This document shows, piece by piece, positions 3,371 to 56,140 of a stretch of DNA of 64,000 nt (position 1 is the stretch's first letter; the number at the start of each line of letters is the position of its first letter). Both the position numbers and the translations under genes were made by a program. The notes beneath the pieces were generated by a model. It was not told the origin of the DNA and did not search any database. It saw nothing but the letters and a program-made list of their open reading frames with translations. Origin of the DNA: Candidatus Forterrea multitransposorum CG_2015-17_Forterrea_25_41 (lineage in GTDB: Archaea; Iainarchaeota; Iainarchaeia; Iainarchaeales; CSSED10-239); contig CP045477.1 in assembly GCA_009392915.1 (NCBI GenBank), forward strand, positions 416,001-480,000, in the 5' to 3' direction.

Positions 3371-3372
3371 AT

Positions 3373-4890
3373 CTATTTCACCTCAAAGCCGATTCCTTTA
3401 AGATTTTTCTTAATCTCTTCTTCTAATTTCTTAGATTCTTTAAATTGTTCGCTTAATTCTTTTGTAAGGCGAGTCATCTTTTCTTGAAAAACTTCAGGAT
3501 CTTCCTCTTCTTCCTTAAAACCAACGTAACGGCCAGGTGTAAGAATAAAGTCTTGCTTTTCAATCTCTTCAAGAGAGGCTGATTTACAAAAAGAAAGCTC
3601 ATCTTGATAACTTTTTTTGTTTATCGGGTCTTTTGACCTCCAAAGAGAAACAGTTTCTGAAATTTTTGTAAAATCTTCTTCAGTGAGTTCTCTTTGTCTT
3701 CTGTTAATCATTTGTCCAAGATTTCTAGCATCAATAAAAAGAGTTTCTCCTTTTCTATGTGCAGGTTTATTTCTATTAACAAACCAAAGACAAGCAGGAA
3801 TCATTGTATTATAAAATAATTGAGATGGAAGAGCAATAATACACTCTACAAGATCATCTTTAAGTATATTTTTTCTAATTTCTCCTTCTCCAGAAGTATT
3901 AGAACTTAAAGAACCGTTTGAAAGAACAAAACCAGCAATTCCTTTAGATCCTAAATGATAAATAAAATGTTGAACCCATGCAAAATTAGCGTTCCCTGCA
4001 GGAGGAACTCCATATTTCCAACGAGCATCCTCTCTTAATAGATCTCCAGACCAGTCTGAATCATTAAAAGGAGGATTTGCAATTATAAAATCAGCTCTTA
4101 AGTCTTTATGTTCATCATTTAGAAAACTACCTTCATTATTCCAAACAACTTTATTATCAATACCTCTTATTGCAAGATTCATTTTACATAATTTCCAAGT
4201 TGTTTGATTAGATTCTTGACCATAAATAGATATTTGACCTATTTTTCCACCATGTTTTTCAACAAACTCTTCAGATTGAACAAACATTCCTCCAGAACCA
4301 CAACAAGGGTCAAATATTCTTCCTTTAAAAGGTTGTATTATTTCAACTAATAATTTAACAATAGATTTAGGAGTATAGAATTGGCCTCCTTTTTTTCCTT
4401 CAGCAGAAGCAAATTGTCCTAAGAAATATTCATATACTCTTCCTAAGATATCTTTACTATTATCTTTAGAATTAAAAGAAATTGTTCCTATAAGATCAAT
4501 TAACGCTCCTAATTTTGTTTTATCTAAAGATGGTTTTGAATAATCTTTTGGAAGTATTCCTTTAAGTGTTGGATTTTCTTTTTCAATTAAATCCATTGAA
4601 TCATCAATAATTCTTCCAATTTCTATATTTTTTGCATTATCTTGAAGATATTCCCATCTTGCTTTTTTTGGAACATAAAATACTCTTTGAGAGACATATT
4701 CATCTTTATCTTCTGGGTCTGCATATTCTTCTTCTTTTAGTTTAGTATATAGTTCTTCAAAAGAATCAGATATATATTTTAAAAATATTAAACCTAAAAC
4801 TACATGTTTATATTCTGCAGCATCCATATTACTTCTTAATTTATCTGCTGCTTTCCAAAGCTTTTCTTCAAATCCTAAATCTTGAGTCAT
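3373..4890 (-). CDS. hsdM: Type I restriction-modification N6-adenine DNA methyltransferase subunit HsdM.
   Basis: 505 aa with an AdoMet motif ([10 protein letters not shown]) and the catalytic NPPF ([12 protein letters not shown]). N-terminal HsdM_N-like region present. Confidence 0.9.
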
Positions 4891-9244: not shown

Positions 9245-10603
9245 TTATTTATCAATAACTTTCCAATATCCTGCTTTGTCTGAACCTATTCTTTTTATCT
9301 TCTTTTGCTCTTTTAATATTTTTAAATATCTTTCAATAGTCTTTGTACTTAAATTAAATTCTGTTGCCATTTGAGCATAAGTAACTTTATTATTAGCTTT
9401 AATTAATTTTAATATTTTTACACCGACATTTACACCGACATTTACACCGACATTTACACCGACATTTACAGTGTCTTTTACAGGTGCATTTACACCGACA
9501 TTCATAGTAGATTCTATTATTTTTTGTCTTTTAAAAACAATACAAAACCAATCAGTATCTATATTAAACTTAACACTTGGAAAAAGTTTTTTTATTCTTT
9601 TAATACCAGAACCAATCTTTTCAATAAACTCTGTTCTTTGTAAACAACCTGCTAAAATAGGATTTCTTAATATACTTACTTTTCCAAAATCTTTTGGACT
9701 AAAAAGAAGTTTTCCTGGATTTAATATTTCAACTCTATCTTCATACACTTCTACCAATATTCTTCCTTGAACAAAATAATCTCTATGAATCATGGCATTT
9801 AGTACTGCTTCCCTTAAAGCAGCCTCTGGTATTTCAGGGGTTTCAACTCTTCTTAAATTAATAATATCAGCCCGTGTTTTTGTATTTCTTAGGATAAATA
9901 ACACAGCATTTTCAAAATTTGATAAAAAGTCAGATTCAAATACTTTTTTATCAAGCATAACAGCCTTAGTATCTCCTTGGTATAAAACACAACTAATATC
10001 TGCATTTAAAAAGAATTTAGTAATTCTTTTTGAAAATAATAATGCACAGGCATTATTTGGAATATCATTTGTTAAAAGATTTAAATTTTTTAAAATATGC
10101 TCTTTTGATAGAGTTGTTGAAAATTTTGCTTTTTTTCTATATTTAAGAAATTTAGTATTATCTATATCTTTAAAATTAAATGAAGAAGTTTGTTTTTCAA
10201 AAGAAATTTTATTTTCGTTTTGTAAAAAATCAATAATTTCATTTCTATCTAGCTTTTGAGAGTTAGCACCTTGCCTTACATAAAAAGAACCACCTACTAA
10301 ATATGGTTTATCTTTTCCTAAAGGAACATATATTATACCAATATTATCTATGATTTCAAAATTAACAACTAAAGAGGGATCTATGTTTCTTGCAATTGTT
10401 TGTACTTCAGAGGAAAATCTATTGTTTATAGAAATACCTTTTATTTCTCCTTTATCTGTAACTCCTAAAAGAATTTTACCTCCATCTGAGTTTGCAAAAG
10501 CACAAATTGATTTTCCAATTTCTTTATGGTTTAAACTTTCTTTAAACTCAAGAGTATATCCTTCTCCTGTTTTTATAAGATTAAGTAAGTTCTTTTTATC
10601 CAT
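9245..10603 (-). CDS. AlbA_2 (Schlafen-like, formerly divergent AAA) + HATPase_c_4 + C-terminal wHTH putative transcriptional regulator.
   Basis: N-terminal LLNLIKTGEGYTLEFKESL...ICAFANSDGGKILLGV, a mid EAVLNAMIHRDY motif, and a C-terminal wHTH (TIERYLKILKEQKKIKRIG). Confidence 0.7.
   Translation of the reverse strand: MDKKNLLNLIKTGEGYTLEFKESLNHKEIGKSICAFANSDGGKILLGVTDKGEIKGISINNRFSSEVQTIARNIDPSLVVNFEIIDNIGIIYVPLGKDKPYLVGGSFYVRQGANSQKLDRNEIIDFLQNENKISFEKQTSSFNFKDIDNTKFLKYRKKAKFSTTLSKEHILKNLNLLTNDIPNNACALLFSKRITKFFLNADISCVLYQGDTKAVMLDKKVFESDFLSNFENAVLFILRNTKTRADIINLRRVETPEIPEAALREAVLNAMIHRDYFVQGRILVEVYEDRVEILNPGKLLFSPKDFGKVSILRNPILAGCLQRTEFIEKIGSGIKRIKKLFPSVKFNIDTDWFCIVFKRQKIIESTMNVGVNAPVKDTVNVGVNVGVNVGVNVGVKILKLIKANNKVTYAQMATEFNLSTKTIERYLKILKEQKKIKRIGSDKAGYWKVIDK
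9421..9504. repeat. 12-bp tandem repeat (CACCGACATTTA): four perfect plus three degenerate copies, in frame inside the regulator CDS (encodes the (VNVG)n linker).
   Basis: Read directly in the sequence: caccgacattta x4, followed by cagtgtctttta, caggtgcattta and caccgacattca. Confidence 0.85.
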
Positions 10604-10937: not shown

Positions 10938-13307
10938 ATGGCCTTAGAAAACTGGAACAAAGATTTAGAAAAAGAAATCATTGAATTTGAAATTAAAAAT
11001 AAACTATTTAAGTTTAGAGAAGCAGAAGAAAAAGAAGTCTTTAGTATAGACACACCTCCTCCATACTTAAACAGACCAATACATATAGGACAAGCAACAA
11101 CTTATGCAATCATGGACATGATTGCAAGATATAGAAGAAAGAAAAACTATAATGTTATTTTTCCTCTAGGACTTGACAGAAACGGACTTCCAATAGAGAT
11201 GGAAGCTGAAAAAAAATATAACATGAATATTTTAACAACTCCAAGAGAAGAATATGTTGATAAATGTAGAGAAATTTTAATTGAATACTCTGGAGAAACA
11301 CAAAGTAGTTTTAGAAAAATAGGAATAAGCTTTAATTCCTATGAAGTAAATGAAGAAATAGGTTCAGTATATGAAACAGATTCTCCAAAATACAGACAAC
11401 TAACACAAAAAACATTTTTATCACTTTATAAAAAAGGACTAATCTATGAAGATGAAAAAGTTGTAAACTATTGTCCAGGCTGTAAGACAACAATTGCAGA
11501 TTCTGAAATTGATTATAAAGAAACAGAATCTTCATTTAATACAATTCTTTTCACAGTTAAAGAGACTGGAGAAAAAATACCAATAGCAACCACAAGACCA
11601 GAACTTATGTGCAGTATTGGTATGGTTATCTTTAACCCAGAAGATGAAAGATGGAAAAACTTAGATGGAAAAACAGCAGTAACTCCTTTATTTAACCTAG
11701 AAGTTCCAATAAAAGCACACACTCTTGCAAAACAAGACAAAGGAACTGGACTTGTTATGATGTGTTCTGCAGGTGATTATTCAGATATTAGATTTTTTAG
11801 AGAACATGGTATTAAACCAATAATCTCAATTAACATAGACGGAACAATGAACAGTAATGCTAAAGAGTTTGAAGGATTAAGAGTTAAGAAAGCAAGAGCA
11901 CAAATAATTGAAACTTTAAAAGAAAAAGGCCTTGTAACTGAAGAAAAGAAAATACAACATAAGGTTCCTATCTGTGAAAGAAGTAAAGATGAAGTTGAGT
12001 TTATTGCTCAAAGTGAATATTATTTAAAACAACTTGATTTTTTAGAAGATGTTAAAAAAATAGGAAATTCAATGAATTTTACAAATCCTGCAAGTAAAAA
12101 AATATTTGATGATTGGCTTAACACAGTTTCAACTGATTGGCCAATTTCAAGAAGAAGATATTATGCAACTGAAGTTCCTTTATGGTATTGTAAAGACTGT
12201 GGAGAAGTTATCTTAGGATCTGAAGATAAATATCAACAACCATGGAAAGAACTTCCAGAAACAAAAACTTGTCCTAAATGTTCTTCTGAGAACATAGAAG
12301 GAGATAAAAGAGTTTTAGATACTTGGTTTGATTCTTCAAACACTCCTCTTTATATACATCATTTTGGAAGTGATTTTTTTAATAAACATCCAGTATGTTC
12401 TCTAAGACCACAAGGTAAAGAGATTGTTAGAACCTGGCTTTATTATACAGTTTTAAAAGCTTATTTAATGAATGGTGGAGTTATCTTTAAAGATGTATAT
12501 ATCCATCAACATATCTTAGATGGAAAAGGATTTAAAATGTCAAAATCTAAAGGAAACATTATAGATCCTCAAAAAATCTTAGATAGTTATGGTGCTGAAA
12601 GTTTTAGATTATGGGCTGTAACTGAAGGTAATTTAGATCAAAAAGATTTTATGTGTTCTGAACAAAATATTAAAGCTGAACAAAAAACATTAAATAAACT
12701 TTGGAATGTTTCAAAGTTTATAACTCAGTTTAAAAAGAATGATTCTGTTGACACTAAGTTTACAGAACTTGATTTAACTTTAAGAAAAGAAATAAATGAG
12801 CTTGTAAAGCTTGCTGATAGAGATTATAATAGATATAATTTCCATATACCTATAGTTAAAGCAAAATATTTCTTAAACAATACTCTTTCTTCAAACTATT
12901 TAGAACTTGTTAAAAGTAGATGTTATAATGGAGAAGGAAAGTTTAAAGAGGAAGAAAAGAATGGTGCTATTGAGACTTTAAGATATGCTCTTGAGAAATT
13001 ACTATATATTCTTTATCCAGTAATACCTTTTACAACTAATATTATTGTTAAAGAAATATATGGAAAAGATATTAATGAAATTTATTTCCCTGAAGCTGAA
13101 GAAATTACAAGTAAGTTTACAATTGAAGATATTGAAACCTTAAACAACAGTATTTGGAAATATAAGAAAAATAATAATATTTCTCTAAAAGATTCTGTTG
13201 AAAAAGTTACTTTACCTTTAAAGTATGAGATTATAAAGGATGATATAAAGGTAACTCATAATATTATAAACCTAGAGTTTAAAGAAGGAGAAGAAATTAT
13301 TATTTAA
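10938..13307 (+). CDS. Class Ia aminoacyl-tRNA synthetase, most consistent with valyl-tRNA synthetase.
   Basis: 789 aa. PPPYLNRPIHIGQA (HIGH-region variant), KMSKSKGNIIDP at ~residue 533, DWPISRR, CP1-like insert with two C-x-x-C knuckles. HIGH-to-KMSKS spacing matches ValRS better than Leu/IleRS. Confidence 0.55.
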   Translation: MALENWNKDLEKEIIEFEIKNKLFKFREAEEKEVFSIDTPPPYLNRPIHIGQATTYAIMDMIARYRRKKNYNVIFPLGLDRNGLPIEMEAEKKYNMNILTTPREEYVDKCREILIEYSGETQSSFRKIGISFNSYEVNEEIGSVYETDSPKYRQLTQKTFLSLYKKGLIYEDEKVVNYCPGCKTTIADSEIDYKETESSFNTILFTVKETGEKIPIATTRPELMCSIGMVIFNPEDERWKNLDGKTAVTPLFNLEVPIKAHTLAKQDKGTGLVMMCSAGDYSDIRFFREHGIKPIISINIDGTMNSNAKEFEGLRVKKARAQIIETLKEKGLVTEEKKIQHKVPICERSKDEVEFIAQSEYYLKQLDFLEDVKKIGNSMNFTNPASKKIFDDWLNTVSTDWPISRRRYYATEVPLWYCKDCGEVILGSEDKYQQPWKELPETKTCPKCSSENIEGDKRVLDTWFDSSNTPLYIHHFGSDFFNKHPVCSLRPQGKEIVRTWLYYTVLKAYLMNGGVIFKDVYIHQHILDGKGFKMSKSKGNIIDPQKILDSYGAESFRLWAVTEGNLDQKDFMCSEQNIKAEQKTLNKLWNVSKFITQFKKNDSVDTKFTELDLTLRKEINELVKLADRDYNRYNFHIPIVKAKYFLNNTLSSNYLELVKSRCYNGEGKFKEEEKNGAIETLRYALEKLLYILYPVIPFTTNIIVKEIYGKDINEIYFPEAEEITSKFTIEDIETLNNSIWKYKKNNNISLKDSVEKVTLPLKYEIIKDDIKVTHNIINLEFKEGEEIII

Positions 13308-13393: not shown

Positions 13394-14014
13394 CTATTTA
13401 TAGCTATTAAAAAGAAACTCTGCTTGCTTCCAATTTACAACATTCCAGAAAGCATCAACATACTCTGCTCTCTTGTTTTGATATTTAAGATAATATGCAT
13501 GCTCCCAAACATCTAAAGCTAAAATTGGTTTTAAGCCTAAAGAGATTGCAGAATCTTGATTTCTTGTCTGTATAATTTCAAGTTTTCCTTCCTTATTTAA
13601 AACAAGCCATACCCAACCAGAACCAAATAAAGTTAAAGCTTTTTCTTTAAATTTTTCTTTAAAGTTTTCAAAACTTTCAAAAGAAGTTACAATTTCTTTT
13701 TCTAAAGCTTCAAAAGGTGCTTTATTTGAGGTAGGAGATAAAATATCCCAAAAGAAATTATGATTGAAATATCCTCCACCATTGTTAATGATCGCTTGCT
13801 TTTTATCTTCTGGTAGAACAGATAAATCTTTTAATATATCAATAACTGACATGTTTTCAAGAGATGTACCTTCAATTGCTTTAATAAACTTATCATAGTA
13901 GGCTCTATGGTGTTTTGTATGATGAACACTCATTGTTTCTTTGTCTATAAATGGTTCTAAGGCATCATATTCATATGGAAGAGATGCAAATTGATTTATA
14001 TTGTTTTCACTCAT
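13394..14014 (-). CDS. sod: Fe/Mn superoxide dismutase.
   Basis: HHTKHHRAYYDKF and DVWEHAYYLKYQNKRAEYV signatures. Confidence 0.85.
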   Translation of the reverse strand: MSENNINQFASLPYEYDALEPFIDKETMSVHHTKHHRAYYDKFIKAIEGTSLENMSVIDILKDLSVLPEDKKQAIINNGGGYFNHNFFWDILSPTSNKAPFEALEKEIVTSFESFENFKEKFKEKALTLFGSGWVWLVLNKEGKLEIIQTRNQDSAISLGLKPILALDVWEHAYYLKYQNKRAEYVDAFWNVVNWKQAEFLFNSYK

Positions 14015-25893: not shown

Positions 25894-26544
25894 ATGACAG
25901 AAAATAGTTTTCCTTTAATAGGAGATAACTTACCAGAAATGAAAGTTCAAACAACCATGGGAGAAAAAAACTTACCAGTTGATTACAAAGGTAAATGGAT
26001 TGTTTTATTCAGTCATCCAGCAGACTTTACTCCTGTTTGTACAACAGAATTTTATTCTTTTGCAAAGAAAAAAGAAGAATTTGATAAAATAAATACAGAG
26101 CTTTTAGGTCTTTCAATGGATCAAGTTTTTTCACACATTAAATGGGCTGAATGGATAAAAGATAATTTAGATCAAGAAATAAATTTTCCAATAATTGCAG
26201 ATCACGGACAAATTGCAACTAAATTAGGTATGCTTCATCCAAGTAAAGGAACAAATACAGTTAGAGCAGTTTTTATAATTGACCCTAAAGGAATTATAAG
26301 ACTTATAATGTACTACCCACAAGAAATTGGAAGAAATGTAGATGAGATTATAAGAAGTATAAAAGCTTTACAATATGCAGATAAACATAATGTAGCAATG
26401 CCTGAAAACTGGCCAAACCACCCTTTATTAAAAGATAAAGTAATTGTTCCTCCTGCAAAAGATGTTCAAACTGCAGAAAAAAGAAAAGAAGAATATAAAG
26501 ATTCTTGCTATGACTGGTGGCTTTGCTATAAAGACATGGAATAG
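25894..26544 (+). CDS. Peroxiredoxin (AhpC/TSA family, Prx6-like).
   Basis: FTPVCTTE peroxidatic-Cys motif and overall Prx architecture. GGTGA RBS 6 nt upstream. Confidence 0.85.
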
Positions 26545-40504: not shown

Positions 40505-40785
40505 TATTAAGTGTACAGGCACTTACTGGTCGAAAAACAGTTCAAGAAAACATTTAGCTTTATAAAATCTCAAGTCCGCAACCCAAAAAGCATCAAACAC
40601 TTAGGATACTGCTGCTTCCTTCCGGATCTGACAGGGTTTACTAAGATATTCGATCTTAATGGACGAACCGTCAGCAATTTTACAAAGAGTGCCTCCTTGC
40701 TTATTTGCCTTCCAGTAATAATCACTCCGGCTATGTAGATTTCCGGTAACAGGAGACTACAACCCCCCCAGCTAGCCTATACAAG
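40505..40785 (-). ncRNA. Signal recognition particle RNA (SRP/7S RNA).
   Basis: Reverse strand contains GUCAGAUCCGGAAGGAAGCAGC, the conserved helix-8 motif (cf. GGUCCGGAAGGAAGCAGCC). It is a GC-rich ~280-nt island in AT-rich DNA, with an oligo-T run at the 3' end. Ends are approximate. Confidence 0.6.
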
Positions 40786-44181: not shown

Positions 44182-44481
44182 CTATTCTTCAAAATAATAA
44201 TTATTATCATCTTCAAGCTTTATAGCTTTTCCATTTACTAAAGCAGAAGAAATCTTTTTTCTAGCATCAATTAAAAGTCTATGAAAAGTAGGTTGAGAAA
44301 TATTCATTCTTTCAGCACATTCTTTTTGCTCTAAACCTAAAAAATCTTTAAGCCTAATAGCTTCAATTTCAACAAAGCTTAATACTTCTTCTTCAATTTC
44401 TCTTAAAGGTATTCCAGCTGGTTTAAAATAATTAGAGGATGGTTTATGTGAAATATTTCTCATTCTTCTTTTTCTTGGCAT
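44182..44481 (-). CDS. DUF134 (UPF0251) family putative DNA-binding protein.
   Basis: MPRKRRMRN...YFKPAGIPLREIEEEVLSFVEIEAIRLKDFLGLEQKECAERMNISQPTF...ARKKISSALVNGKAI matches the DUF134 consensus. Confidence 0.7.
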   Translation of the reverse strand: MPRKRRMRNISHKPSSNYFKPAGIPLREIEEEVLSFVEIEAIRLKDFLGLEQKECAERMNISQPTFHRLLIDARKKISSALVNGKAIKLEDDNNYYFEE

Positions 44482-44500
44482 ATTTTAAAACCTTTTTTTC

Positions 44501-44836
44501 TTAATGTTTACAAGGAGTATTTAAATCTTTTAAATCAGCTATATTTTCAATTACTTCTTTTAAGAAATTATAATCTCCTGTTTTAAGAATAATATTTTTT
44601 TCTACAAATAAATCAATTGCTTTTTTACCCATACCTTTACTAAAAACTGTATCTATATTATTTTCTAAAATTTGATCTACTGGAGATTTAGAACTATTAT
44701 GATCTAAATAATTTTTAATAATTTTTAATTCTTTTAAAACTGTATCATATATTGCAAAAAAATTACAAGTTCCAAAATGATTGCTTAATTTTGAATCTAA
44801 ATTATTATTATCTTCTAATGAAATTAAAATTTTCAT
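44501..44836 (-). CDS. NifX/NifB-like dinitrogenase FeMo-cofactor-binding family (Nitro_FeMo-Co) protein.
   Basis: MKILISLED...LSNHFGTCNFFAIYD matches the HFG(R/H)APYF.I(V)D motif. Start taken at the second ATG, which is preceded by a GAGGA RBS. Confidence 0.55.
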   Translation of the reverse strand: MKILISLEDNNNLDSKLSNHFGTCNFFAIYDTVLKELKIIKNYLDHNSSKSPVDQILENNIDTVFSKGMGKKAIDLFVEKNIILKTGDYNFLKEVIENIADLKDLNTPCKH

Positions 44837-44932
44837 AAATAAATCCTCTAGTATCATTTAATATTTTTAAAATTAAATATTTAATGAATATATATAAATA
44901 TATAAAGAAAAGAAATAAAAGAACTACTCTTT

Positions 44933-48084: not shown

Positions 48085-48963
48085 CTATCTTTTCTTTGAA
48101 TTCTTTTTATTTCTTGAAACTAAATAAACTATCCAACCTAAAAATGCAAATGGAATTATTACAAATAAAAATTTCAATAATGCATTTACACTATTTACAA
48201 AAGATCTTACAAGATCAGATAATTTAACAAGTGCTATATTAGAATAACTGTATTTTTCAGAAATATTTAAATTAATTGTAGAATAATCAACTCTTTGATC
48301 CATGTTCTTTAATGAATCTTCTAAATATTTAATTGTTCTTTCTTGATTAAATATTCTATCATTTAATTCTATTTTATCTGAAATTTTTTCAGCACTATTA
48401 TACATTTCTTGATATCTTAAAAGTCTTTCTCTTTCAACTTCAAGTTCAATTTCTCTATTAGTATAACTTCCAGTTATATCATTTGAATTTTCAGTAAAAT
48501 AAGTAACTTTACCAATCTCTCTTAATTGAGAAACAACAGAATCAAGTTTTGAAGATTCAACTTTAATAGAGTAAGAACCATAATATTCTTCTTTATTACC
48601 ATTTTCTCTTGTATTTAAACTTTCATTTAAAACTATTGAATCAGAAGAAGAAACAATTGACTTTACTTTTGAATCTGCAAGTTTAAATTCTCCACCTTTA
48701 ACTTCTAAAGAAAGACTAGAATTTTTTGTAATTTTTCTATCTTCAACTTCTGGTGCAAAATCTTGACTATAGCTTAAACCATAACCACCAGCATATTCCA
48801 TAGATTTAGAATACATGGCACTATCATTCATTGCAAAAGAATCTCTTGCAGAATAACTAGTTCCATTTGAAACTAAAAAAGTTAAAACTAAGAATGCAAC
48901 AACAACTAAAAGAATTATTAACCAATTTTCTTTTAATCTTATTAATTGTTCTTTAAAGCTCAT
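48085..48963 (-). CDS. Hypothetical protein with N- and C-terminal TM helices.
   Basis: The ORF is flanked by hydrophobic segments. S-rich. Confidence 0.3.
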   Translation of the reverse strand: MSFKEQLIRLKENWLIILLVVVAFLVLTFLVSNGTSYSARDSFAMNDSAMYSKSMEYAGGYGLSYSQDFAPEVEDRKITKNSSLSLEVKGGEFKLADSKVKSIVSSSDSIVLNESLNTRENGNKEEYYGSYSIKVESSKLDSVVSQLREIGKVTYFTENSNDITGSYTNREIELEVERERLLRYQEMYNSAEKISDKIELNDRIFNQERTIKYLEDSLKNMDQRVDYSTINLNISEKYSYSNIALVKLSDLVRSFVNSVNALLKFLFVIIPFAFLGWIVYLVSRNKKNSKKR

Positions 48964-49092
48964 TTTTTTTATTCACCTCGTAACTATAAGTTTAATTAAC
49001 TAATTATTATATAAAAAGATTTAAAAAGAGGAACAAATACTTAGGAAAAAACCTTAAAGAACATTTCTTTTAAAAAATAAAAAAGATTAAAG

Positions 49093-49175
49093 CGCAGAGG
49101 ACGGGATTCGAACCCGTGTAGTCGTGAGACTCTAGCTTAGCAGGCTAGCGCGTTTGACCACTCTGCCACCTCTGC
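49093..49175 (-). tRNA. tRNA-Ser (anticodon GCU), class II.
   Basis: Manual fold: acceptor GCAGAGG/CCTCTGC, anticodon loop CTGCTAA, long variable arm, T-arm CGGGTTCGAATCCCG. Confidence 0.8.
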
Positions 49176-49247
49176 TCTATTTGTTTTATTCTTCTTATAA
49201 ACAATTAGTAAATATTTATGCTTCTAAAAGTATTTAAAGGTATTTTT

Positions 49248-50150
49248 TTATTTTTTAGAGAAAACCTTTCCTAAAAAAACCTTTTTATTAACACCATACC
49301 TTTTAACATCAATATACCCTTTACCTTCTAATTTTTTAAGGTTTCTTGAAACAGTACCTTTTGGTAAAAAACATTCTTTTGAAAGATTTTTTTGCAAAAT
49401 ACCATTCTTTTCTAAAACAATTTTAATTATTTTTTGCTCATTTTCATTAAGTCCTAAAAGAAGATCTTCAGCTTCTATTTTTTCTTTATTTGAAGAAATT
49501 AAAGATTTTTTCTTTTTTAAAATAAACTTAACTAAAACAAAAAATACAAAAAAAGAAATAAAAAATATCATAAAAAACAAAAACCAATTAAATGGTTTTT
49601 TATCAATCATAGAAGAAAAATGAATTGAATAATTAATATCAAAATAAGAAATTGGCTCATTATAAGTTACTAAAAACTTATTATCTTGTATAGTTACATT
49701 TCTATAATCTAGAGAAAGAGAAATTATTTCTGTTTTTTTAGGTAAAATTAAAGAAAAACTATCCACATATTCTTTAAAAATAGGTAAATAACTAACAGAC
49801 CAAACATTTCCATTCTTAAAAGAATAAACATCAGTTAAATAAATTATTTCAAGAGTTAAAGAATTATCTAAAATACAGCAATTATTTAGATTAATTGTTA
49901 AAGTATTAAATGAATAATTATAATTAATATCTTTATTTGTATTCTTTATCTTAAGATCATAAACAGGAATAATTGGAAGAACAATAGAATCTCCTTTTTT
50001 AATTTCTGTAAATAAAACTATATCGTTTACTTGTAAAATACCATTCTCATTAACAGTAATAGAAGTATCTATTTTTTCTATATTATATGCAAAAGAATTA
50101 ACAGAAAATAAAACAATTAATAATAATAATAAAAAATAATAATTTTTCAT
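49248..50150 (-). CDS. Membrane-associated protein with a C-terminal winged-HTH (MarR/TrmB-like).
   Basis: Signal/TM at the N-terminus, a mid TM helix, and a C-terminal LSKECFLPKGTVSRNLKKLEGKGYIDVKR wHTH. Confidence 0.4.
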   Translation of the reverse strand: MKNYYFLLLLLIVLFSVNSFAYNIEKIDTSITVNENGILQVNDIVLFTEIKKGDSIVLPIIPVYDLKIKNTNKDINYNYSFNTLTINLNNCCILDNSLTLEIIYLTDVYSFKNGNVWSVSYLPIFKEYVDSFSLILPKKTEIISLSLDYRNVTIQDNKFLVTYNEPISYFDINYSIHFSSMIDKKPFNWFLFFMIFFISFFVFFVLVKFILKKKKSLISSNKEKIEAEDLLLGLNENEQKIIKIVLEKNGILQKNLSKECFLPKGTVSRNLKKLEGKGYIDVKRYGVNKKVFLGKVFSKK

Positions 50151-50229
50151 AATAATATATAGTATATTAAAATATTTAAAATGTATTATTTAATTTTTAT
50201 TAAAAAAAAAAGAAAAAGAAGAGAAATAA

Positions 50230-51753
50230 CTATTCAGTTATCTCTACATCTTCAGAAGCATTTAAAGAAACATACTTTTCTCTATGTCCAAAAGGAATAA
50301 AACCAAATAACTTTCTTTGTTCTTTAACCTTTAAAACATATTCAAGTTTGCTATCTACAGAAACAAGTTCAACATTTCCAATAACATTTTCTGTTTTAAT
50401 ATTATTTTCAATTAAAACATTGTTAATTGGTTTTATTTTTCTAACCTTTTCTTGATTTGAAATATACATTTCAGTCATACTTTCATCTGTAAATACTTCA
50501 TAGTCTTCTAAAGTCTCAATTAAAACATCATCACCTTTTTCTTTTCTAAGGTCTTTTTTAGCTTCAGCATTTATTGAAACATTAGATATCTTTACTTGTT
50601 CTTGAACAATCATTCTATTTTGAAGTTTTTCTTGAGCTTTTTCTGAAAGTGTATCAATTGGAGCAAAAGCTACAACAAAATTTTCAGAAACTATTGTTTT
50701 GTAAAGAGGATCTTGACTATCAACTATTCTTCTATTAACTAAACTTACTTCAATAGAATATTTGTTATCTCTAAATTCTTTCCCAAATACTTTTTCAATT
50801 AAATCTAGATTATTTTTTATAGATACTTGATAATTATAAGTATATACTCTTCTCATTTCAGGTAATACACTATTTGCTTGATTTCTAGTAGCAACTGATG
50901 TATTTGCTGAAACTGATCCAGAACCAGAATTATTTACTTGATTTGAAGCAGAAACAGATGCTCTTACTCTTTCAATATTCTTAATAGATTCTAAATTTTG
51001 TGATGAAGAAACTTGAGTATAAACTTCAGCTTTCACAGTTGAAACATCAATTTCAGAAGATTCATTTACAGAAACACTTGAATCAATTCTTTCTGTTGGA
51101 ACTGTTATACCACCTTCACGATCTACCATTAAATAAACTACTTTATCTGATGTTGATATATCAACTAAAGGAGTCATTTTAAAAACTAAATTATATTCTT
51201 CTTTTAAAAGTTCTTTTGAAGAGATTACTCTTGCATGGATTTTTGAATTATTATAGATAAATCCAGAATTATCGTTTACAACAGGAGTAAATTTAACACT
51301 TAAACCTAATTTATTTTCAGTTACTGGAGGTTTAGGTTTTTCTATAAATTTTTCAATACCAACTTTACATTCTTGTTCAGTTTCAAAAGATCTGATATTG
51401 TTAACTCCACAACCACTTCCACATTCTACAAACTCACAAGAATATTCTATTTCAGATTCTTGATTATAATTTGTTTTAGAATCTTCTTCTTGAACATCTA
51501 CATTAGTATGAACTTCAGAAGATATTACCCACATAGGAATACAAACAGCAGGACAGATTTCATCAATATTTCCTTGAGAATTATCAATTGTATCTATATT
51601 AATATTTGCATTCATATTAAGATTAGGAGTATTATCATCAACTACAATCATTTCTGTTACATAATCTGCATTTATTGGAGGAACAGCTAAAATTCCTACA
51701 GCAAATATAAAAGCTAACAGAATAACTGAAATTATTTTTTTTATAACATTCAT
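50230..51753 (-). CDS. Hypothetical secreted protein.
   Basis: N-terminal signal-like helix. Cys cluster (CPAVCIPMW...CEFVECGSGCG). Confidence 0.35.
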   Translation of the reverse strand: MNVIKKIISVILLAFIFAVGILAVPPINADYVTEMIVVDDNTPNLNMNANINIDTIDNSQGNIDEICPAVCIPMWVISSEVHTNVDVQEEDSKTNYNQESEIEYSCEFVECGSGCGVNNIRSFETEQECKVGIEKFIEKPKPPVTENKLGLSVKFTPVVNDNSGFIYNNSKIHARVISSKELLKEEYNLVFKMTPLVDISTSDKVVYLMVDREGGITVPTERIDSSVSVNESSEIDVSTVKAEVYTQVSSSQNLESIKNIERVRASVSASNQVNNSGSGSVSANTSVATRNQANSVLPEMRRVYTYNYQVSIKNNLDLIEKVFGKEFRDNKYSIEVSLVNRRIVDSQDPLYKTIVSENFVVAFAPIDTLSEKAQEKLQNRMIVQEQVKISNVSINAEAKKDLRKEKGDDVLIETLEDYEVFTDESMTEMYISNQEKVRKIKPINNVLIENNIKTENVIGNVELVSVDSKLEYVLKVKEQRKLFGFIPFGHREKYVSLNASEDVEITE

Positions 51754-52174: not shown

Positions 52175-52777
52175 TTATTTTATCTTTTTTAAAAAATACC
52201 AAAAAGCAATAAATAACACTACAAAACCAACTAAAAAAATCATTAAAACATTAAAATAATTTAAAACTGATTTTGAAATCTCTTCTCCAAGCTTATAACC
52301 AAGAATTGTTAAAAAAGAAACCCATAAAAAAGATCCTAAAAAAGTGTAAAAAATAAAATCTTTTAAAGGCATTTTTGAAAAACCAGCAGGAATAGAAATA
52401 TACTGTCTTACAACAGGTATTAACCTTCCAAAAAAAGTTGCTGATTTACCATATTTTTTAAAAAACAATTCTGCTTTTTCTAGATGAGAAATATTTATAA
52501 AGAATATTCTTTGGTGTCTTAAAAGATATCTCCTTCCTAAATAATAACCTATAGAATAATTTATTAATGCACCAAAAACAGAACCTAAAGTTCCTAAAAG
52601 AATTACAAGAAATATATTTAAATTACCTACATATGCAAAAGCACCTGCAGGAACCATTATGATCTCTGAAGGAAAAGGAATAAATGAACTTTCAATAGTC
52701 ATTAATAAAAACACCAATAAATGTCCAACAAATCCTGTTAAATAATCAGACAAAAATAAAATCATTTCTTCAAACAT
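52175..52777 (-). CDS. DedA/TVP38 family membrane protein.
   Basis: GHLLVFLLMTIESSFIPFPSEIIMVPAG matches the DedA core. Confidence 0.65.
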   Translation of the reverse strand: MFEEMILFLSDYLTGFVGHLLVFLLMTIESSFIPFPSEIIMVPAGAFAYVGNLNIFLVILLGTLGSVFGALINYSIGYYLGRRYLLRHQRIFFINISHLEKAELFFKKYGKSATFFGRLIPVVRQYISIPAGFSKMPLKDFIFYTFLGSFLWVSFLTILGYKLGEEISKSVLNYFNVLMIFLVGFVVLFIAFWYFLKKIK

Positions 52778-52805: not shown

Positions 52806-53510
52806 CTAAACTATATAACTAGATACAAAAAAGATTAAAAGACTTACTGGAAGTAAAAAACATAAATAAATCCAAACTTTCTTTGAATTACTATCAATCT
52901 GTGATAAATAAATTGAAGAAATTATAACATATTCAACTAAATATACAATTGCACAATAATAACTTACAATAAACAAACTAGAATTAGAAGTTAAACCAAC
53001 AACTGAAATATCAACAATTCCAGTTAAACTTTTAACCAAAGAAATTACAACCCCTAAAATCCCAGGAACAATAAAACCACCTGCAAAAAGAATAGTGTAT
53101 TTTTGCATTAAAAGAATTGAAGTTCTTTCATCAAACAATTCTCTTGATTTTAAAAAATCTTTAACTAAATTTTTATAATCTTTAGAAGTAACTGTTCCAG
53201 TAAAAACTGAATATTCTAAAAGATCTAAAAAATTTGAAAGAAAAGAAGAATTATATTTATTTTTTAAAATATTAAACACTTCTTTAGGGGTATGCCCTTT
53301 GTTTATTTTATTTAAAATTAATTTAAATTCAGAAGATATTAATTGATTACTGGAAGATGCAAGCTTTACTAAAATTACTTTTAGATCATTTGTTTTAACA
53401 AACCCAGAGATTCTTAAAACTTCATCAATTAAAGCATCTTCAAATTTCTTTCTCTTAATACTAAAAAAATAATCTCCAAATAAGTAATTTAAATACTTCA
53501 TTAATTTCAT
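52806..53510 (-). CDS. Type II/IV secretion-system F-domain membrane protein (TadC/FlaJ-like half).
   Basis: Cytoplasmic helical domain followed by three TM helices. Adjacent to a similar protein and a secretion ATPase. Confidence 0.45.
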   Translation of the reverse strand: MKLMKYLNYLFGDYFFSIKRKKFEDALIDEVLRISGFVKTNDLKVILVKLASSSNQLISSEFKLILNKINKGHTPKEVFNILKNKYNSSFLSNFLDLLEYSVFTGTVTSKDYKNLVKDFLKSRELFDERTSILLMQKYTILFAGGFIVPGILGVVISLVKSLTGIVDISVVGLTSNSSLFIVSYYCAIVYLVEYVIISSIYLSQIDSNSKKVWIYLCFLLPVSLLIFFVSSYIV

Positions 53511-53533
53511 AATTAATTAACTCTCATTTTTAT

Positions 53534-54280
53534 TTATGGAAGATTAGCTTTCATTGTTAGGAATATAAACATATCAATTATTGGAAATAAAATAACAATT
53601 ATAAAAATAACAGATAAAGGTGTAAAAGATAATTCTAAAAAATTACTACCAACTAATAAAAACATTAAAAACAAAGCAGGAACAATTGCAGAAACAACAA
53701 TATAGATTAAAGATAAAAGACTTAATTTAGTGGAATAATTTTTAATTAAATAATTTTGTTTTTCAATAATACTTGAAGATAATGTTCTTAAAGATTCAGA
53801 TTTATTTAAAGAACCAGTAGATAAAACATCTTCAATCTGATAAAAAACTCTCTTTAAATCTGAGTTTTCAACACCCACAGAAATAAAAGATTCAGAAAGA
53901 GAATAACCTAAGACATTTACTTTATATAAAACTTTTTTAATAATTTGCCCAATTAAAGAAGAATCAACTCTATTTTCTAAAGCAATTTTTAAAGAAATAT
54001 TCTTATCTAAATCATTTGCAAGGTTATTTAAGAAAAAAGGAATTTCTTTATTTATTTGTCTTTGATGATTTTGAAGCTTAATCTTGTATTTAAAAAAAAT
54101 AATAAAAAAGAACATAAAGAAAAACATAATAAATAAATTAAATAAATAACTATAAGATAAACTAATAACCACTGAATCAATTAATAAAAAAATAATTAAA
54201 ATTATTAAATAGAGAATAATAAATAACAAAAAGTTCTTTCTTGTAAATATTTCTTTCTTTAAAAAAATATAATCAATCAT
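53534..54280 (-). CDS. Type II/IV secretion-system F-domain membrane protein (TadB/FlaJ-like half).
   Basis: TM helices flank a T2SSF-like cytoplasmic domain (IGQIIKKVLYKV...). 8-nt overlap with the ATPase gene. Confidence 0.45.
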   Translation of the reverse strand: MIDYIFLKKEIFTRKNFLLFIILYLIILIIFLLIDSVVISLSYSYLFNLFIMFFFMFFFIIFFKYKIKLQNHQRQINKEIPFFLNNLANDLDKNISLKIALENRVDSSLIGQIIKKVLYKVNVLGYSLSESFISVGVENSDLKRVFYQIEDVLSTGSLNKSESLRTLSSSIIEKQNYLIKNYSTKLSLLSLIYIVVSAIVPALFLMFLLVGSNFLELSFTPLSVIFIIVILFPIIDMFIFLTMKANLP

Positions 54281-56036
54281 AATCTTTTCTAATTAATATT
54301 TCATCAATTATTTTTTCTTGTTTCTTATAAACTTTAAGATAATCTTTTTTATTTTTAATATCAAATGCAAATTTTAATTTATCATAGATTTTAATAGAAT
54401 CATTAACTTTAATTAATTTATTTTTATAAATATCAAAATAAAATAAAACATTTAAAGAAATTTTTCCATCTTTATATATAACTTCACAGATTTCAGTAAT
54501 ATTTCTTAAATCAATAGATTTACCTTTTAAATATTTATTATATCTTCTTTGAGTTATAATTAAATCAATTACACCTAAATCAGTTTCTAAAACACCATAT
54601 GACTTAAACCTTAATAGAGCTTCATTAGCACTTTGAGAATGGAAAGTTGTATATGTACCTTTTGCTTGACCACAAAGCATAGATTCAATTAAATATTTTG
54701 ATTCTTCTCTACTTCTAATTTCTCCAATAACAACTCTATCAGGTCTCATTCTTAAAGTGTTTATAACTAAACTTTCAAGATTAATTCCAATCTCAGGATT
54801 TACAAGTGTAAAAACTTTATGTTTATGAGGGATATTTATCTCTCTAACTTCTTCAACAACAACAAATCTTTCATCTAAAGGAACAAAAGAAAGTAAAGTG
54901 TTTAAAGTGGTTGTTTTTCCAGAACCAGTATTTCCAACAACAATTATATTTGAATCTGTTAAAAAACAAAGACTTAAAAAAACTAAAGCTTCTTTTGAAA
55001 CTGTATTAAAAGAGATTAAATCTTTAATTGTAAATGGTTTTTGAGAAAATTTTCTAATAGTAATACAAGCACTTTCAGTTATTGGGTTTATAACTGCATT
55101 AAGTCTTGAATTATCTTTAAGATAAGTATCTAAAATTGGATTTTTTAAAGTAATATATTTATTTGAGTGCCAAGAAAGTTTATTAATTAAATCCCTTATT
55201 ACTTGAGAAGAAGAATAAGAAAGATTACTTTCAAGCCAACCATAATATTTATGATAAACATAAAGTGATTTTCCTTCTCCAATAATTACAATTTCTTCAA
55301 GATAAGGATCTTTTAATATTTCTGTTAATGGTCCATAATTATAAAGATTATTAAAAGAAATATCTATAATATAATTAAATTGATCTTCTTCAAGCTCTAT
55401 GTTATTAACATAACAATAATCAATTAATTCTTTTTCAATATCTTCTTTTATTCTTTCAGTTGAAACTTTTTCAATATATTCTGTTCTAGTTTTATAAGAA
55501 TCTAAAATAAAGTTAATAACTTCAATTTCTTGGATTGAAAGATTTTGATGAAAAATTAAATATCTTTTAGAAGAATCTTTCATTTCAAATACATTTTTAG
55601 AAATATTTCTTAAGATTTCTTTTTTTAAATCTAAAACAACATAACCTAAATATCTATTAAGAATATATTTCTTTTCATCATCAGTAAACTCATCCATTAT
55701 CTTTAATAAAGCAGGATTATTTTTATAACAAAACATAGAAAAAGAACTTAAAGCACATAAATCACATTTATAAGCTTTATTTTTTCTTAAGATAATAGCA
55801 TTATGTGGACAAGCTTTAAGACACTCACCACACCCATCACATTTTTCAGAATCAATTGCTACAACGCCTTTAGAAACATAATAAATAGCATTTTTTTTAC
55901 AAGCTTTAATACAAGGAGCATCTTTACAATTGGTACAATTGAATACACAAGAAGAGTCTTTTTTTGTAAAATTGTAAGGACAATTTAGAAAAACATCTGT
56001 ATCTTTGATAAAATCTTCTGTTTTCTTAAGATACAT
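54273..56036 (-). CDS. FlaI/CpaF/VirB11-family secretion ATPase with an N-terminal 2[4Fe-4S] ferredoxin-like domain.
   Basis: N-terminus: CTNCKDAPCIKAC and CDGCGECLKACP (CxxCxxCxxxCP). C-terminal core: Walker A VVGNTGSGKTTTL, Asp box VVVEEVREI, Walker B RMRPDRVVIGEIRSREE. Confidence 0.75.
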   Translation of the reverse strand: MYLKKTEDFIKDTDVFLNCPYNFTKKDSSCVFNCTNCKDAPCIKACKKNAIYYVSKGVVAIDSEKCDGCGECLKACPHNAIILRKNKAYKCDLCALSSFSMFCYKNNPALLKIMDEFTDDEKKYILNRYLGYVVLDLKKEILRNISKNVFEMKDSSKRYLIFHQNLSIQEIEVINFILDSYKTRTEYIEKVSTERIKEDIEKELIDYCYVNNIELEEDQFNYIIDISFNNLYNYGPLTEILKDPYLEEIVIIGEGKSLYVYHKYYGWLESNLSYSSSQVIRDLINKLSWHSNKYITLKNPILDTYLKDNSRLNAVINPITESACITIRKFSQKPFTIKDLISFNTVSKEALVFLSLCFLTDSNIIVVGNTGSGKTTTLNTLLSFVPLDERFVVVEEVREINIPHKHKVFTLVNPEIGINLESLVINTLRMRPDRVVIGEIRSREESKYLIESMLCGQAKGTYTTFHSQSANEALLRFKSYGVLETDLGVIDLIITQRRYNKYLKGKSIDLRNITEICEVIYKDGKISLNVLFYFDIYKNKLIKVNDSIKIYDKLKFAFDIKNKKDYLKVYKKQEKIIDEILIRKDYD

Positions 56037-56140
56037 CTATAATTTAATTATAGAATAAAAAGATTAATAAATAGATCCTAAAATCTATAAAACAGGTTTT
56101 TTAAAAAGATATTTATATCTATCTATATTTAAATATAAGT

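Follow-up and report, generated by a model that had tools for sequence, protein, structure and literature searches.

A type IV filament-class ATPase with a fused, predicted poly-[4Fe-4S] domain in DPANN archaea

Few prokaryotic motors are as well studied as the type IV filament ATPases, and the inputs known to act on them are nucleotides (c-di-GMP), partner proteins and, for bacterial members, a structural zinc site. In the 64-kb stretch of DNA analysed here (the window), a gene for a motor of this class also encodes an N-terminal iron-sulphur (Fe-S) domain, which raises the question of what such a domain might do on a filament ATPase. The earlier note, made from the sequence alone, had read the locus as a Tad- or archaeal type IV pilus-like module whose secretion ATPase carries a ferredoxin domain. 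That reading as a whole was partly supported: the fusion, the platform proteins and the absence of a pilin were borne out, whereas the type of ferredoxin and the number of cysteines had to be amended. The note also did not know the combination from characterised systems, and indeed no description of an Fe-S/secretion-ATPase fusion was found in the full-text literature that we searched. Automatic annotation pipelines already label both domains; new here are the recognition of the family, its actual fold, its predicted number of clusters and its reductive evolution.

The fusion protein and its ATPase

The features of the locus are as follows.

52175..52777, minus strand: VTT/DedA-family membrane protein (Pfam VTT_dom, E = 2.4e-23)
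52806..53510, minus strand: platform protein 2, a half-size T2SSF protein of 234 aa with about 3 transmembrane segments (match to PF00482; paralog of platform protein 1)
53534..54280, minus strand: platform protein 1, a half-size T2SSF/TadB-TadC-like protein of 248 aa with about 4 transmembrane segments (orthologs match PF00482)
54273..56036, minus strand: Fe-S-domain/secretion-ATPase fusion of 587 aa (open reading frame, Pfam T2SSE and Fer4 families, AF2 model, identity to NCP72030.1)
54276..55031, minus strand, within the fusion: C-terminal RecA-like ATPase domain, aa ~336-587 (invariant columns, Foldseek)
55032..55691, minus strand, within the fusion: linker helix, conserved 'LGY/LGW' strand (G131) and ATPase N-terminal domain, aa ~116-335 (AF2 secondary structure, phmmer alignment to 2OAP)
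55692..56036, minus strand, within the fusion: N-terminal poly-[4Fe-4S] domain of HycB/DmsB type, aa 1-115, with predicted ligand sets for clusters [II], [III] and [IV]
56037..56140, no strand assigned: divergent AT-rich intergenic region of 104 bp common to the fusion gene and a PRPP synthetase gene, presumed from its sequence to be a promoter region

The 587-aa reading frame was uninterrupted, running from the Cys-rich region into the ATPase without a stop codon, and it matched T2SSE and Fer4 families, confirming that a redox-cofactor domain and an ATPase of the type IV pilus/Tad/FlaI class share one polypeptide. A separate upstream gene for the N-terminal region, which the earlier note had named as grounds for giving up its idea, was rejected together with an internal start: M113, the sole internal Met considered as an alternative start, was not conserved, and in seven homologous contexts both Pfam families lay on single, full-length gene calls of 540-602 aa. 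A search for such fusions in other genomes, as the note had proposed, yielded >130 distinct sequences from several sources and three DPANN lineages, at 35-98% identity and with invariant ligands. Of the 120 best homologs, which reached down to 35% identity, the majority had both domains. All of these data come from metagenome assemblies, and some lineages have lost the domain repeatedly or reduced its clusters (see below), as might be expected of a mis-assembled or mis-called fusion or of a decaying, functionless ferredoxin remnant. However, the identical protein, recorded in NCBI as NCP72030.1, occurs on 38 independent contigs of up to 840 kb, and the AF2 model is confident. The homologs, the invariant ligands, the identical contigs and the loss of cysteines in whole sets effectively refute an artefact or relic; the fusion is real and under selection.

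Pfam T2SSE (PF00437) matched aa 294-498 (E = 2.3e-35; 122 bits against a cutoff of 24.9). Both Walker motifs quoted in the earlier note were located, GNTGSGKTT at residues 368-376 and RMRPDRVVIGE at 429-439 (a box extended to 441 in our domain map), along with an Asp box (E395/E399) and a His box (H466). G368-T375, E395/E399, R429-D433/E439/R441 and H466 were invariant in 92 sequences, a motif set indicating that the ATPase is probably catalytically intact. In the AF2 model (pLDDT 92.9), this part of the protein formed a two-domain fold (NTD and CTD) that was superposable on solved secretion ATPases, with Foldseek matches to 2OAP (E = 2e-33), 4II7 (E = 3e-32) and 8RJF (E = 1e-29). The phmmer alignment spanned residues 55-450 of afGspE from A. 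fulgidus (2OAP). The proteins afGspE, FlaI (4II7) and CpaF/TadA (8RJF, 9E24) have the same architecture of NTD and RecA-like CTD and the same four boxes that are invariant in the fusion family. They were the closest known proteins (best sequence matches, E = 5e-45 to 1e-34; TM 0.67-0.75 on target for the best fold matches), but identity was only 22-25%, and the solved proteins have no Fe-S domain and differ in their N-terminal ~55-120 residues. The protein failed both the FlaI equivalog (NCBIfam NF058587; 175.2 bits against a cutoff of 550) and the TadA/CpaF equivalog (TIGR03819; 146.8 bits against 373). Relatives lacking Fer4 begin at the LGW motif.

Fold, ligands and cluster loss in the Fe-S domain

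The two Cys motifs quoted in the earlier note, CTNCKDAPCIKAC (C34-C46) and CDGCGECLKACP (C66-C76), were found in the protein, and Fer4 families matched aa 33-95 above their cutoffs (Fer4_11, 30.8 against 26.2; Fer4_6, 33.3 against 25; Fer4, 32.2 against 21.1). Loss of the motifs from orthologs would have spoken against the idea; instead, 12 Cys were invariant in the 92 sequences, where mean column identity was 44%. The eight cysteines that the note had listed are thus conserved, but it had overlooked C19 and C91/C94/C103, which are equally so. Conservation of the Fe-S domain was on par with that of the remainder (47% versus 44%), and C30 was poorly conserved (2%). C208 (91% conserved) was considered as an extra ligand and set aside, as P0100 and P0118, relatives without Fer4, appear by eye to have an equivalent Cys.

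The assignment to a 2[4Fe-4S] ferredoxin did not hold. A plain bacterial-type ferredoxin of this kind has ~55 residues and only two CxxCxxCxxxCP motifs, and the domain did not conform to it. The domain instead consisted of two ferredoxin-like halves, with ~110 residues superposable on four-cluster Fe-S beta subunits, and, modelled as part of the whole protein, came out with high confidence (pLDDT ~90, pTM 0.78). Its four-cluster relatives were DmsB, PsrB/NrfC (2VPW_B), FdnH (1KQF_B), ArrB (6CZ7_B), HDCR HycB3 (7QV7_G), the W-AOR Fe-S subunits 9MQX_E and 8C0Z_F, and WOR5-B (6X6U_B). Twelve of the 16 family Cys were present in the fusion protein; motif I Cys1-3 and motif IV Cys4, and with them one cluster, were missing. 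The predicted ligands are C34, C37, C42 and C76 for cluster [II], C66, C69, C72 and C46 for cluster [III], and C91, C94, C103 and C19 for cluster [IV]. By these patterns the module is predicted to bind three clusters here and four in its ancestral form. Unlike the DmsB/PsrB/HycB subunits, which belong to oxidoreductases, it is joined covalently to a motor ATPase, and no catalytic or membrane-anchor partner is encoded nearby.

With a fold and a cysteine spacing that match beta subunits dedicated to electron transfer, the chain might be an electron relay that docks to ferredoxin, hydrogenase, PFOR or some other redox partner and passes electrons on. Such a relay could couple ATP hydrolysis to electron transfer in the manner of the nitrogenase Fe protein or benzoyl-CoA reductase, link the six chains round the hexamer, or feed a conductive filament. 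Its best matches include HDCR HycB3 and AOR Fe-S subunits, which polymerise into electron-conducting wires. In addition, the ancestral state had a full four-cluster wire, and the clade of the studied protein has kept a three-cluster chain that we take to be contiguous from the cluster order in NarH/FdnH.

The distribution of the clusters bears on this alternative. The fusions formed one clade in Iainarchaeota, Micrarchaeota and Undinarchaeales; in a neighbour-joining tree without support values, this was a separate DPANN clade with bacterial CpaF proteins as the outgroup, and the tree and the Cys patterns together placed the full four-cluster set in the ancestor. Among 133 distinct Fe-S domains, each ligand set was all-or-none in 118, a figure that counts sequences and not events because the 12-Cys state arose only once. 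All 16 Cys were present in 65 of these domains, and cluster [IV], which adjoins the linker into the ATPase, was complete in 131. Cluster [I] was lost in the clade of the studied protein, cluster [II] separately in P0018/P0021 and in P0156/P0276, and cluster [III] in P0216. This pattern suggests that the Cys behave as true ligands, being lost mostly in complete sets rather than at random.

On the same neighbour-joining tree, the Fe-S domain was completely lost at least four times inside the clade, and it was present in roughly 29 of the top 150 50%-identity clusters, many of the others being without it. Repeated complete loss and absence from many relatives argue that the domain is accessory rather than catalytic. 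A scan of a genome collection was dominated by bacterial CpaF matches because the search patterns lay within the ATPase core, and it informed only the Fer4-less relatives and outgroups. No split variant, with a stand-alone ferredoxin gene upstream of a Fer4-less relative, was found in L006-L012, and in relatives with a long N-terminus, where other sensory domains might have replaced Fer4, Pfam gave divergent Fer4 or nothing.

These losses count against passage of electrons along the chain: the first cluster to go was the one that, in the enzymes, lies towards the catalytic subunit, the middle cluster disappeared in two lineages, and the whole domain was lost repeatedly. Loss of the middle cluster with retention of the flanking ones, as in P0018/P0021 and P0156/P0276, would break any wire and still be compatible with a scaffold. 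It is consistent with a structural or mechanical role, in which redox-inert clusters would rigidify the N-terminal module without any sensing, and the module would dock on the platform proteins or the membrane or serve as a lever in the ATPase cycle. ABCE1/Rli1, a ribosome-recycling ABC ATPase with an N-terminal 2x[4Fe-4S] domain and no known electron-transfer role, provides the precedent; it embodies the same concept of an essential mechanical NTPase with an N-terminal ferredoxin-like Fe-S domain outside a redox enzyme. The high confidence with which the Fe-S domain was modelled together with the remainder also fits this role, which we nevertheless consider unlikely.

Gene neighbourhood and the nature of the machine

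The ATPase, platform and VTT/DedA genes all lie on the minus strand. As the earlier note had stated, two GspF/T2SSF membrane proteins follow the ATPase, the first overlapping the stop region of the ATPase gene by 8 nt; a 23-nt gap separates the second. Platform protein 2 matched T2SSF above the cutoff (30.1 against 25.2). Platform protein 1 alone was sub-threshold (18 bits), but all 6 of the 6 orthologs in its family alignment matched (best E = 8e-11), and the two families were homologous by hhalign (probability 98.8%). The platform-protein profile had no matches among solved structures. The VTT/DedA gene begins 28 nt downstream of the platform protein 2 gene and was present in homologous loci L001, L004 and L086 but absent in L002, L003 and L085; its membership of the module is doubtful because it is a conserved neighbour only in Iainarchaeota-type loci. 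A sigma-70 promoter scan of the upstream region gave background levels only, and that model is not applicable to an archaeon.

Across seven homologous contexts, the core common to different phyla consisted of only three genes, for the ATPase fusion and two T2SSF proteins. No conserved oxidoreductase or cofactor-bearing membrane partner was encoded near the module in these contexts, neither the window nor the flanks of the seven loci contained a gene for a molybdo/tungstopterin or hydrogenase catalytic subunit, and the platform proteins contained no cofactor motifs. Taken with the pattern of loss, the lack of a conserved partner and of cofactor motifs in the platforms makes an electron relay improbable in our judgement.

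As in archaeal type IV pilus systems, an ATPase and a T2SSF platform are present. The archaellins, FlaH, FlaF/G and single two-domain FlaJ of a FlaI-type locus were absent from the window and the seven homologous loci; in contrast to the archaellum, the platform here is split into two genes. The order of an ATPase followed by two separate, translationally coupled single-domain T2SSF proteins resembles bacterial Tad, but the Flp pilin, TadV peptidase and secretin (RcpA) of Tad loci were not found. EpdL-EpdJ-EpdK of Methanococcus maripaludis is reportedly another split-platform type IV filament core. Compared with the TadA-TadB-TadC and EpdL-EpdJ-EpdK cores, the module here carries an Fe-S domain on its ATPase and has no TadV/EppA peptidase, Flp-type pilin or accessory genes. 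A 'CpaF-family ATPase + TadC + TadC' arrangement is listed for Micrarchaeon Mia14 (PMC5498576 supplement), and that paper makes no mention of an Fe-S domain for the Mia14 ATPase.

No ORF with a class III signal peptide, no Peptidase_A24 and no second T2SSE were found in the 64-kb window, in agreement with the earlier note, which had seen no pilin nearby. The regex scan used for pilins recognises the genuine ones of the L003 genome, and multi-TM ORFs were checked with Pfam. Likewise, no pilin, minor pilin or prepilin peptidase adjoined any fusion locus inspected (flanks within +/-10 kb), so that the link to filaments comes entirely from the homology of the ATPase and the platforms. From this homology, the output of the module is probably a pilus. 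The missing genes would also suit a translocase working without pilins, which might, for instance, take up or export DNA or protein where the cell touches its host; it would use the ATPase and platform chassis while its Fe-S domain plays any of the other roles proposed here. The L003 genome has, apart from the fusion locus, a canonical T4P locus that encodes an ATPase and a platform of its own, pilins with class III signal peptides and a giant LamG adhesin, which makes the Fe-S module a second system there. However, all characterised T2SSE and T2SSF pairs, to our knowledge, work with pilin-like substrates, the core genes of the M. maripaludis Epd pili are said to be encoded apart from their pilins, and the absence near other loci extends to +/-10 kb only. 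We regard a translocase as improbable too.

Possible inputs to the motor

The reading that we tentatively prefer, at somewhat less than an even chance, is a core for type IV filament assembly in which the motor bears an accessory Fe-S domain as an input for redox state, O2 or Fe-S status. In a tiny-genome, Iainarchaeota-like DPANN archaeon whose pilins and prepilin peptidase are presumably encoded elsewhere in the genome, the FlaI/TadA/GspE-class ATPase and the two half-size TadB/TadC-like platform proteins would form the cytoplasmic/inner-membrane core of an archaeal pilus-type machine. The clusters would be reduced or oxidised, or intact or degraded by O2, ROS or iron shortage. Their state, above all that of the always-retained cluster [IV] directly before the linker helix, would reach the ATPase N-domain by way of the linker and gate motor activity there, and filament assembly would run only under suitable redox conditions. 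The genes for SOD and a 1-Cys peroxiredoxin within the window indicate that the organism handles O2 and ROS, and we count them as support. The sensing role proposed for the domain has a parallel in the MshEN domains of MshE/PilB/GspE-class ATPases, which are N-terminal c-di-GMP-binding regulatory inputs. This parallel is one of logic only, namely an N-terminal input domain on a filament ATPase that is dispensable in relatives; fold and ligand are entirely different, and no similarity in sequence or structure is known.

Known Fe-S sensors typically use one cluster. A chain of three or four is more elaborate than these, and its fold is that of electron-transfer subunits, which speaks against a sensor.

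A bolder proposal, which we regard as a long shot, is that the chain is working electron-transfer hardware. FlaI/TadA/GspE-class ATPases are hexameric, and six three- or four-cluster wires round the hexamer could link a low-potential electron pool, the cell's or the host's, to the motor. Electron gating might be coupled to ATP, each assembly step might be licensed by reductant, or the chain might form the cytoplasmic end of a conductive surface filament. If this is true, the module would be the first type IV filament machine coupled to redox, and DPANN symbionts would gain a direct molecular link from energy status to host attachment.

The family provides a ready-made experimental series, in which members with four, three or two clusters stand beside relatives that have none and cluster [IV] is nearly always retained; with these cluster states, recombinant protein would allow a direct test of what the Fe-S domain does. 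For type IV filament ATPases, a motor-borne, conserved multi-[4Fe-4S] module would be a kind of input or cofactor not known before. The three DPANN lineages that carry the fusion are thought to rely on surface filaments for contact with their hosts, and their biology is almost entirely genome-inferred. Our sequence comparisons and structural models suggest that, in a DPANN archaeon, the assembly of surface filaments may be tied to redox state.

An iron-sulfur domain fused to a secretion ATPase

The earlier note had described a ferredoxin-type Cys region and a secretion ATPase in one polypeptide, followed by two GspF-domain proteins. On inspection of the sequence, the reading frame of the fusion gene was unbroken, and Pfam annotation, named there as a check, placed T2SSE at aa 294-498 of the 587-aa protein (E 2e-35) and several Fer4 families, including the four-cluster family Fer4_11, over aa 33-95, all above gathering cutoffs. 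The module is as follows.

54273-56036 (-): Fe-S/ATPase fusion gene, 587 aa; ORF with Pfam T2SSE and Fer4
53534-54280 (-): platform ORF 1, 248 aa; 8-nt overlap with the fusion gene; T2SSF by orthologs
52806-53510 (-): platform ORF 2, 234 aa; 23-nt gap before it; T2SSF above cutoff
52175-52777 (-): VTT/DedA protein, 200 aa; closely spaced fourth gene

An AT-rich 104-bp gap 5′ of the fusion gene is shared with a divergent PRPP synthetase gene. The G+C content of the window is ~23%.

The full set of secretion-ATPase superfamily catalytic motifs was present in the 587-aa protein and invariant across a 92-sequence family alignment. Judged from its sequence, the protein is a catalytically competent ATPase of the FlaI/TadA/GspE class, closest to afGspE (2OAP), FlaI (4II7) and CpaF (8RJF). 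It belongs to the superfamily but scored below the equivalog thresholds of FlaI (175 bits versus 550) and TadA (147 versus 373). The 234-aa protein matched T2SSF above cutoff, whereas the 248-aa protein alone gave a weak match; all six of six orthologs in its family alignment matched (best E 8e-11), and the two families are homologous (hhalign probability 98.8%). The ATPase is translationally coupled to a split TadB/TadC-like platform, which resembles those of the Tad and Epd systems and the 'CpaF-family ATPase + TadC + TadC' locus of Mia14, a cultured Micrarchaeon. The reported lack of a nearby pilin gene also held: no class III signal peptide was detected in the 64-kb window by a scan that picks up the genuine pilins of a related locus (L003), and Pfam identified no prepilin peptidase, also sought at the note's suggestion, among the multi-TM ORFs of the window.

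Cysteine conservation and ligand sets

Of 5.8 billion proteins searched, 3616 matched at E < 1e-10, and both Fer4 and T2SSE were found in most of the best 120, down to 35% identity, so that fusions do occur in other genomes. When 108 full-length homologs were aligned, twelve Cys were at least 96% conserved (C19, C34/37/42/46, C66/69/72/76 and C91/94/103) and C30 was not. In the curated 92-sequence alignment the twelve were strictly invariant, with a mean column identity of only 44%. Half of the family carried four additional Cys, giving the classical four-motif pattern: CxxCxxCxxxC(P) for motif I, CxxCx4-6CxxxC for II, CxxCxxCxxxCP for III and (K)CxxCx3-8CxxxCP for IV. The ATPase N-terminus is a conserved poly-Fe-S domain, and by its Cys pattern it is bigger than previously thought; the assignment as a 2[4Fe-4S] ferredoxin fails against twelve conserved Cys, three predicted clusters and a four-cluster-type pattern in half of the family. 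Because the ORF, Pfam, motif, platform and signal-peptide checks agree, every element of the original observation was confirmed; in its interpretation, the idea of a redox domain on a motor stood, the cluster count and fold class were wrong, and 'Tad' applies only by analogy.

The clusters of DmsB/NarH/FdnH-type proteins each draw their ligands from two motifs, Cys1-3 from one and Cys4 from its partner. Ligand sets were therefore counted by this rule (cluster number = motif giving Cys1-3) in 133 distinct Fe-S-bearing N-terminal domains. All four sets were present in 65, and 48, including the query, lacked exactly motif I Cys1-3 and motif IV Cys4, residues that lie ~90 positions apart in sequence and yet are absent together. 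P0018 and P0021 had further lost exactly motif II Cys1-3 and motif III Cys4, which were also absent, in a four-cluster background, from P0156 and P0276. The whole cluster [III] set was missing from P0216, and P0189, scored partial by the automated alignment, had motifs I and IV only when read by eye. Every set was either complete or absent in 118 of the 133 domains; several of the other 15 resembled 5′-truncated gene calls or spacing variants. As far as alignments can tell, the Cys of the family behave as cluster ligands, their losses obeying the Cys1-3 plus partner Cys4 rule. From this pattern three clusters are predicted for the query: [IV] (C91, C94, C103 and C19), [II] (C34, C37, C42 and C76) and [III] (C66, C69, C72 and C46). 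The cluster [IV] set, which lies directly before a linker helix (aa 119-127) and a conserved LGW/LGY strand, was complete in 131 domains, [II] in 127, [III] in 124 and [I] in 72.

Distribution and genomic context

When 1.84 billion representatives were searched exhaustively with a profile, 5849 relatives were found at E < 1e-30, and the Fe-S domain was present in ~29 of the best 150 50%-identity clusters. By source names, fusions occur in Iainarchaeota/Diapherotrites, Micrarchaeota and Undinarchaeales. The exact 587-aa protein (NCP72030.1, '[archaeon]') was found on 38 contigs of up to 840 kb, with cluster-mates named Candidatus Iainarchaeum; the source is accordingly an Iainarchaeota-like DPANN archaeon. 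That the fusion is an artefact is extremely improbable, since its occurrence on 38 independent contigs and in >130 distinct sequences effectively rules this out. Most fusion homologs carry a weak record of PF27713 'UCP018868', a recent Pfam family with no mention in the literature searched. Seven relatives of 830-1600 aa (P0083, P0087, P0102, P0105, P0122, P0123 and P0131), one of them named Hydrothermarchaeales, contain two to four tandem T2SSE units, so that subunits of a normally homohexameric motor are joined covalently in one chain.

A tree of the ATPase core was computed by neighbour joining; it lacks support values and can be taken only as indicative. Proteins with the Fe-S domain grouped with their nearest Fer4-less relatives in one clade, apart from bacterial CpaF and from the other archaeal T4P ATPases. 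Within this clade, the 16-Cys form was a basal grade and the 12-Cys form a single derived clade, to which the query belongs and inside which the 8-Cys pair is nested. Full-length Fer4-less members appeared at at least four places. Because these proteins begin at the LGW motif and no stand-alone ferredoxin gene lies 5′ of them at the loci inspected, the Fe-S domain must have been deleted from them and not split off as a separate gene.

Among seven fusion loci inspected, only the three-gene core of the ATPase and two T2SSF genes was common across phyla, and neither pilins nor an oxidoreductase adjoined it. At Iainarchaeota-type loci the core is preceded by PRPP synthetase and PCC genes and followed by VTT/DedA; at Micrarchaeota-type loci it is preceded by PIN or DUF192 and followed by PAC2. 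A small DUF192-like gene directly 5′ of the ATPase and a PAC2 (proteasome-assembly-chaperone family) gene directly 3′ of the core recur at L002, L003, L085, L006, L007, L009 and L011 (by Pfam in the first three, by motif alone in the rest), and these loci, Micrarchaeota-type or related to that type, include Fer4-less ones. In L086, an Iainarchaeum MAG, the Fe-S ATPase gene is separated from the T2SSF genes by an additional 327-aa ORF (11889-12872) without a Pfam match. The Micrarchaeota-type locus L003 has a separate canonical pilus locus 1-10 kb upstream of its Fe-S module (L003 1-8841). Besides two T2SSF genes, this pilus locus encodes an ATPase of the ordinary kind (647 aa) and proteins whose class III signal peptides are of textbook form (…SKG/MIGIEFVV…, MRG/QFYVISLVF…), indicating that there, at least, the Fe-S module is one of two systems and the additional one. 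The same pilus locus encodes a 1452-aa LamG (Laminin_G_3) protein with a long internal exact duplication of ~620 aa.

Other features of the window are listed below.

140-4890 (-): type I restriction-modification system; HsdM at 3373-4890 (E 4e-111)
9245-10603 (-): Schlafen AlbA_2 + HATPase_c_4 + HTH protein
13394-14014 (-): Fe/Mn superoxide dismutase (Sod_Fe_C E 6e-42)
25894-26544 (+): 1-Cys peroxiredoxin (AhpC-TSA E 1e-31)
40512-40783 (-): archaeal SRP RNA, located between uvrA and ftsZ (Rfam RF01857, 118 bits)
44182-44857 (-): gene pair, DUF134 (sigma-70 r4-like HTH) and NifX/Nitro_FeMo-Co family
48085-51753 (-): three genes beyond the VTT gene and tRNA-Asp

The last three genes encode a secreted protein of 507 aa that matches no Pfam family, a protein of 300 aa in which a signal sequence and a TM segment are combined with a winged-helix domain (HTH_24/MarR) at the C-terminus, and a DUF4349 protein; they are probably outside the module because they are syntenic only in a near-identical MAG (L001). 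L001 also has the DUF134 and NifX/Nitro_FeMo-Co pair, a widespread pairing. The restriction-modification system, in which two small single/double-TM ORFs (2397-3370) lie between a 323-aa ORF (1429-2400) and hsdM, may form a small defence island with the Schlafen-type protein. The window also has an FtsZ gene and four tRNAs (Tyr, Leu, Ser and Asp), tRNA-Asp just downstream of the VTT gene.

Possible roles of the Fe-S domain

The three-gene module may assemble a type IV filament, its pilins being supplied by genes outside the locus, with the Fe-S domain as an accessory input on the motor ATPase. That the module is instead a pilin-independent translocase, a question separate from that of the Fe-S domain, seems quite improbable. 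We tentatively favour a sensor or gate of the motor as the role of the Fe-S domain, because the domain is evolutionarily dispensable and the motor is not, and because the never-lost cluster [IV] adjoins the linker into the ATPase N-domain. In bacterial homologs, N-terminal inputs such as MshEN c-di-GMP domains act at the position before the N-domain. A purely structural, ABCE1-like Fe-S module is unlikely. A true relay function, in which electrons pass to a partner, come from one or travel round the ring of the hexamer, would suit a fold of electron-transfer type whose best matches are nanowire-forming HycB/AOR subunits; we consider it distinctly unlikely. The cluster order in NarH/FdnH is I-IV-II-III, and the loss of the middle cluster of the chain in two lineages, which would break a wire, together with the absence of a conserved redox partner nearby, favours a sensor or gate.

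The superoxide dismutase and 1-Cys peroxiredoxin indicate that the organism meets oxygen or ROS, and oxidative-stress defences kept in a very small-genome archaeon bear on any O2-labile Fe-S protein. L086, too, has a peroxiredoxin gene, ~5 kb upstream of its module.

The earlier note had found the combination unfamiliar from characterised systems, and our full-text literature search returned no paper describing a Fer4-T2SSE fusion. The Mia14 paper and supplement (PMC5498576) mention no Fe-S domain, and the archaeal T4P census (Makarova et al. 2016, PMC4858521) does not mention Fe-S, 4Fe, iron-sulfur, ferredoxin, Diapherotrites or DPANN. Pipelines already label the architecture (e.g. JGI 'CpaF family ATPase/Fe-S-cluster-containing dehydrogenase component'); the fusion is therefore visible in databases but uncharacterised and undiscussed in the literature searched. 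To a specialist, an Fe-S module of three to four clusters on the motor of a pilus would be surprising, although all that is said of its function is inference, and the natural series of four, three, two and no clusters makes the question experimentally tractable.
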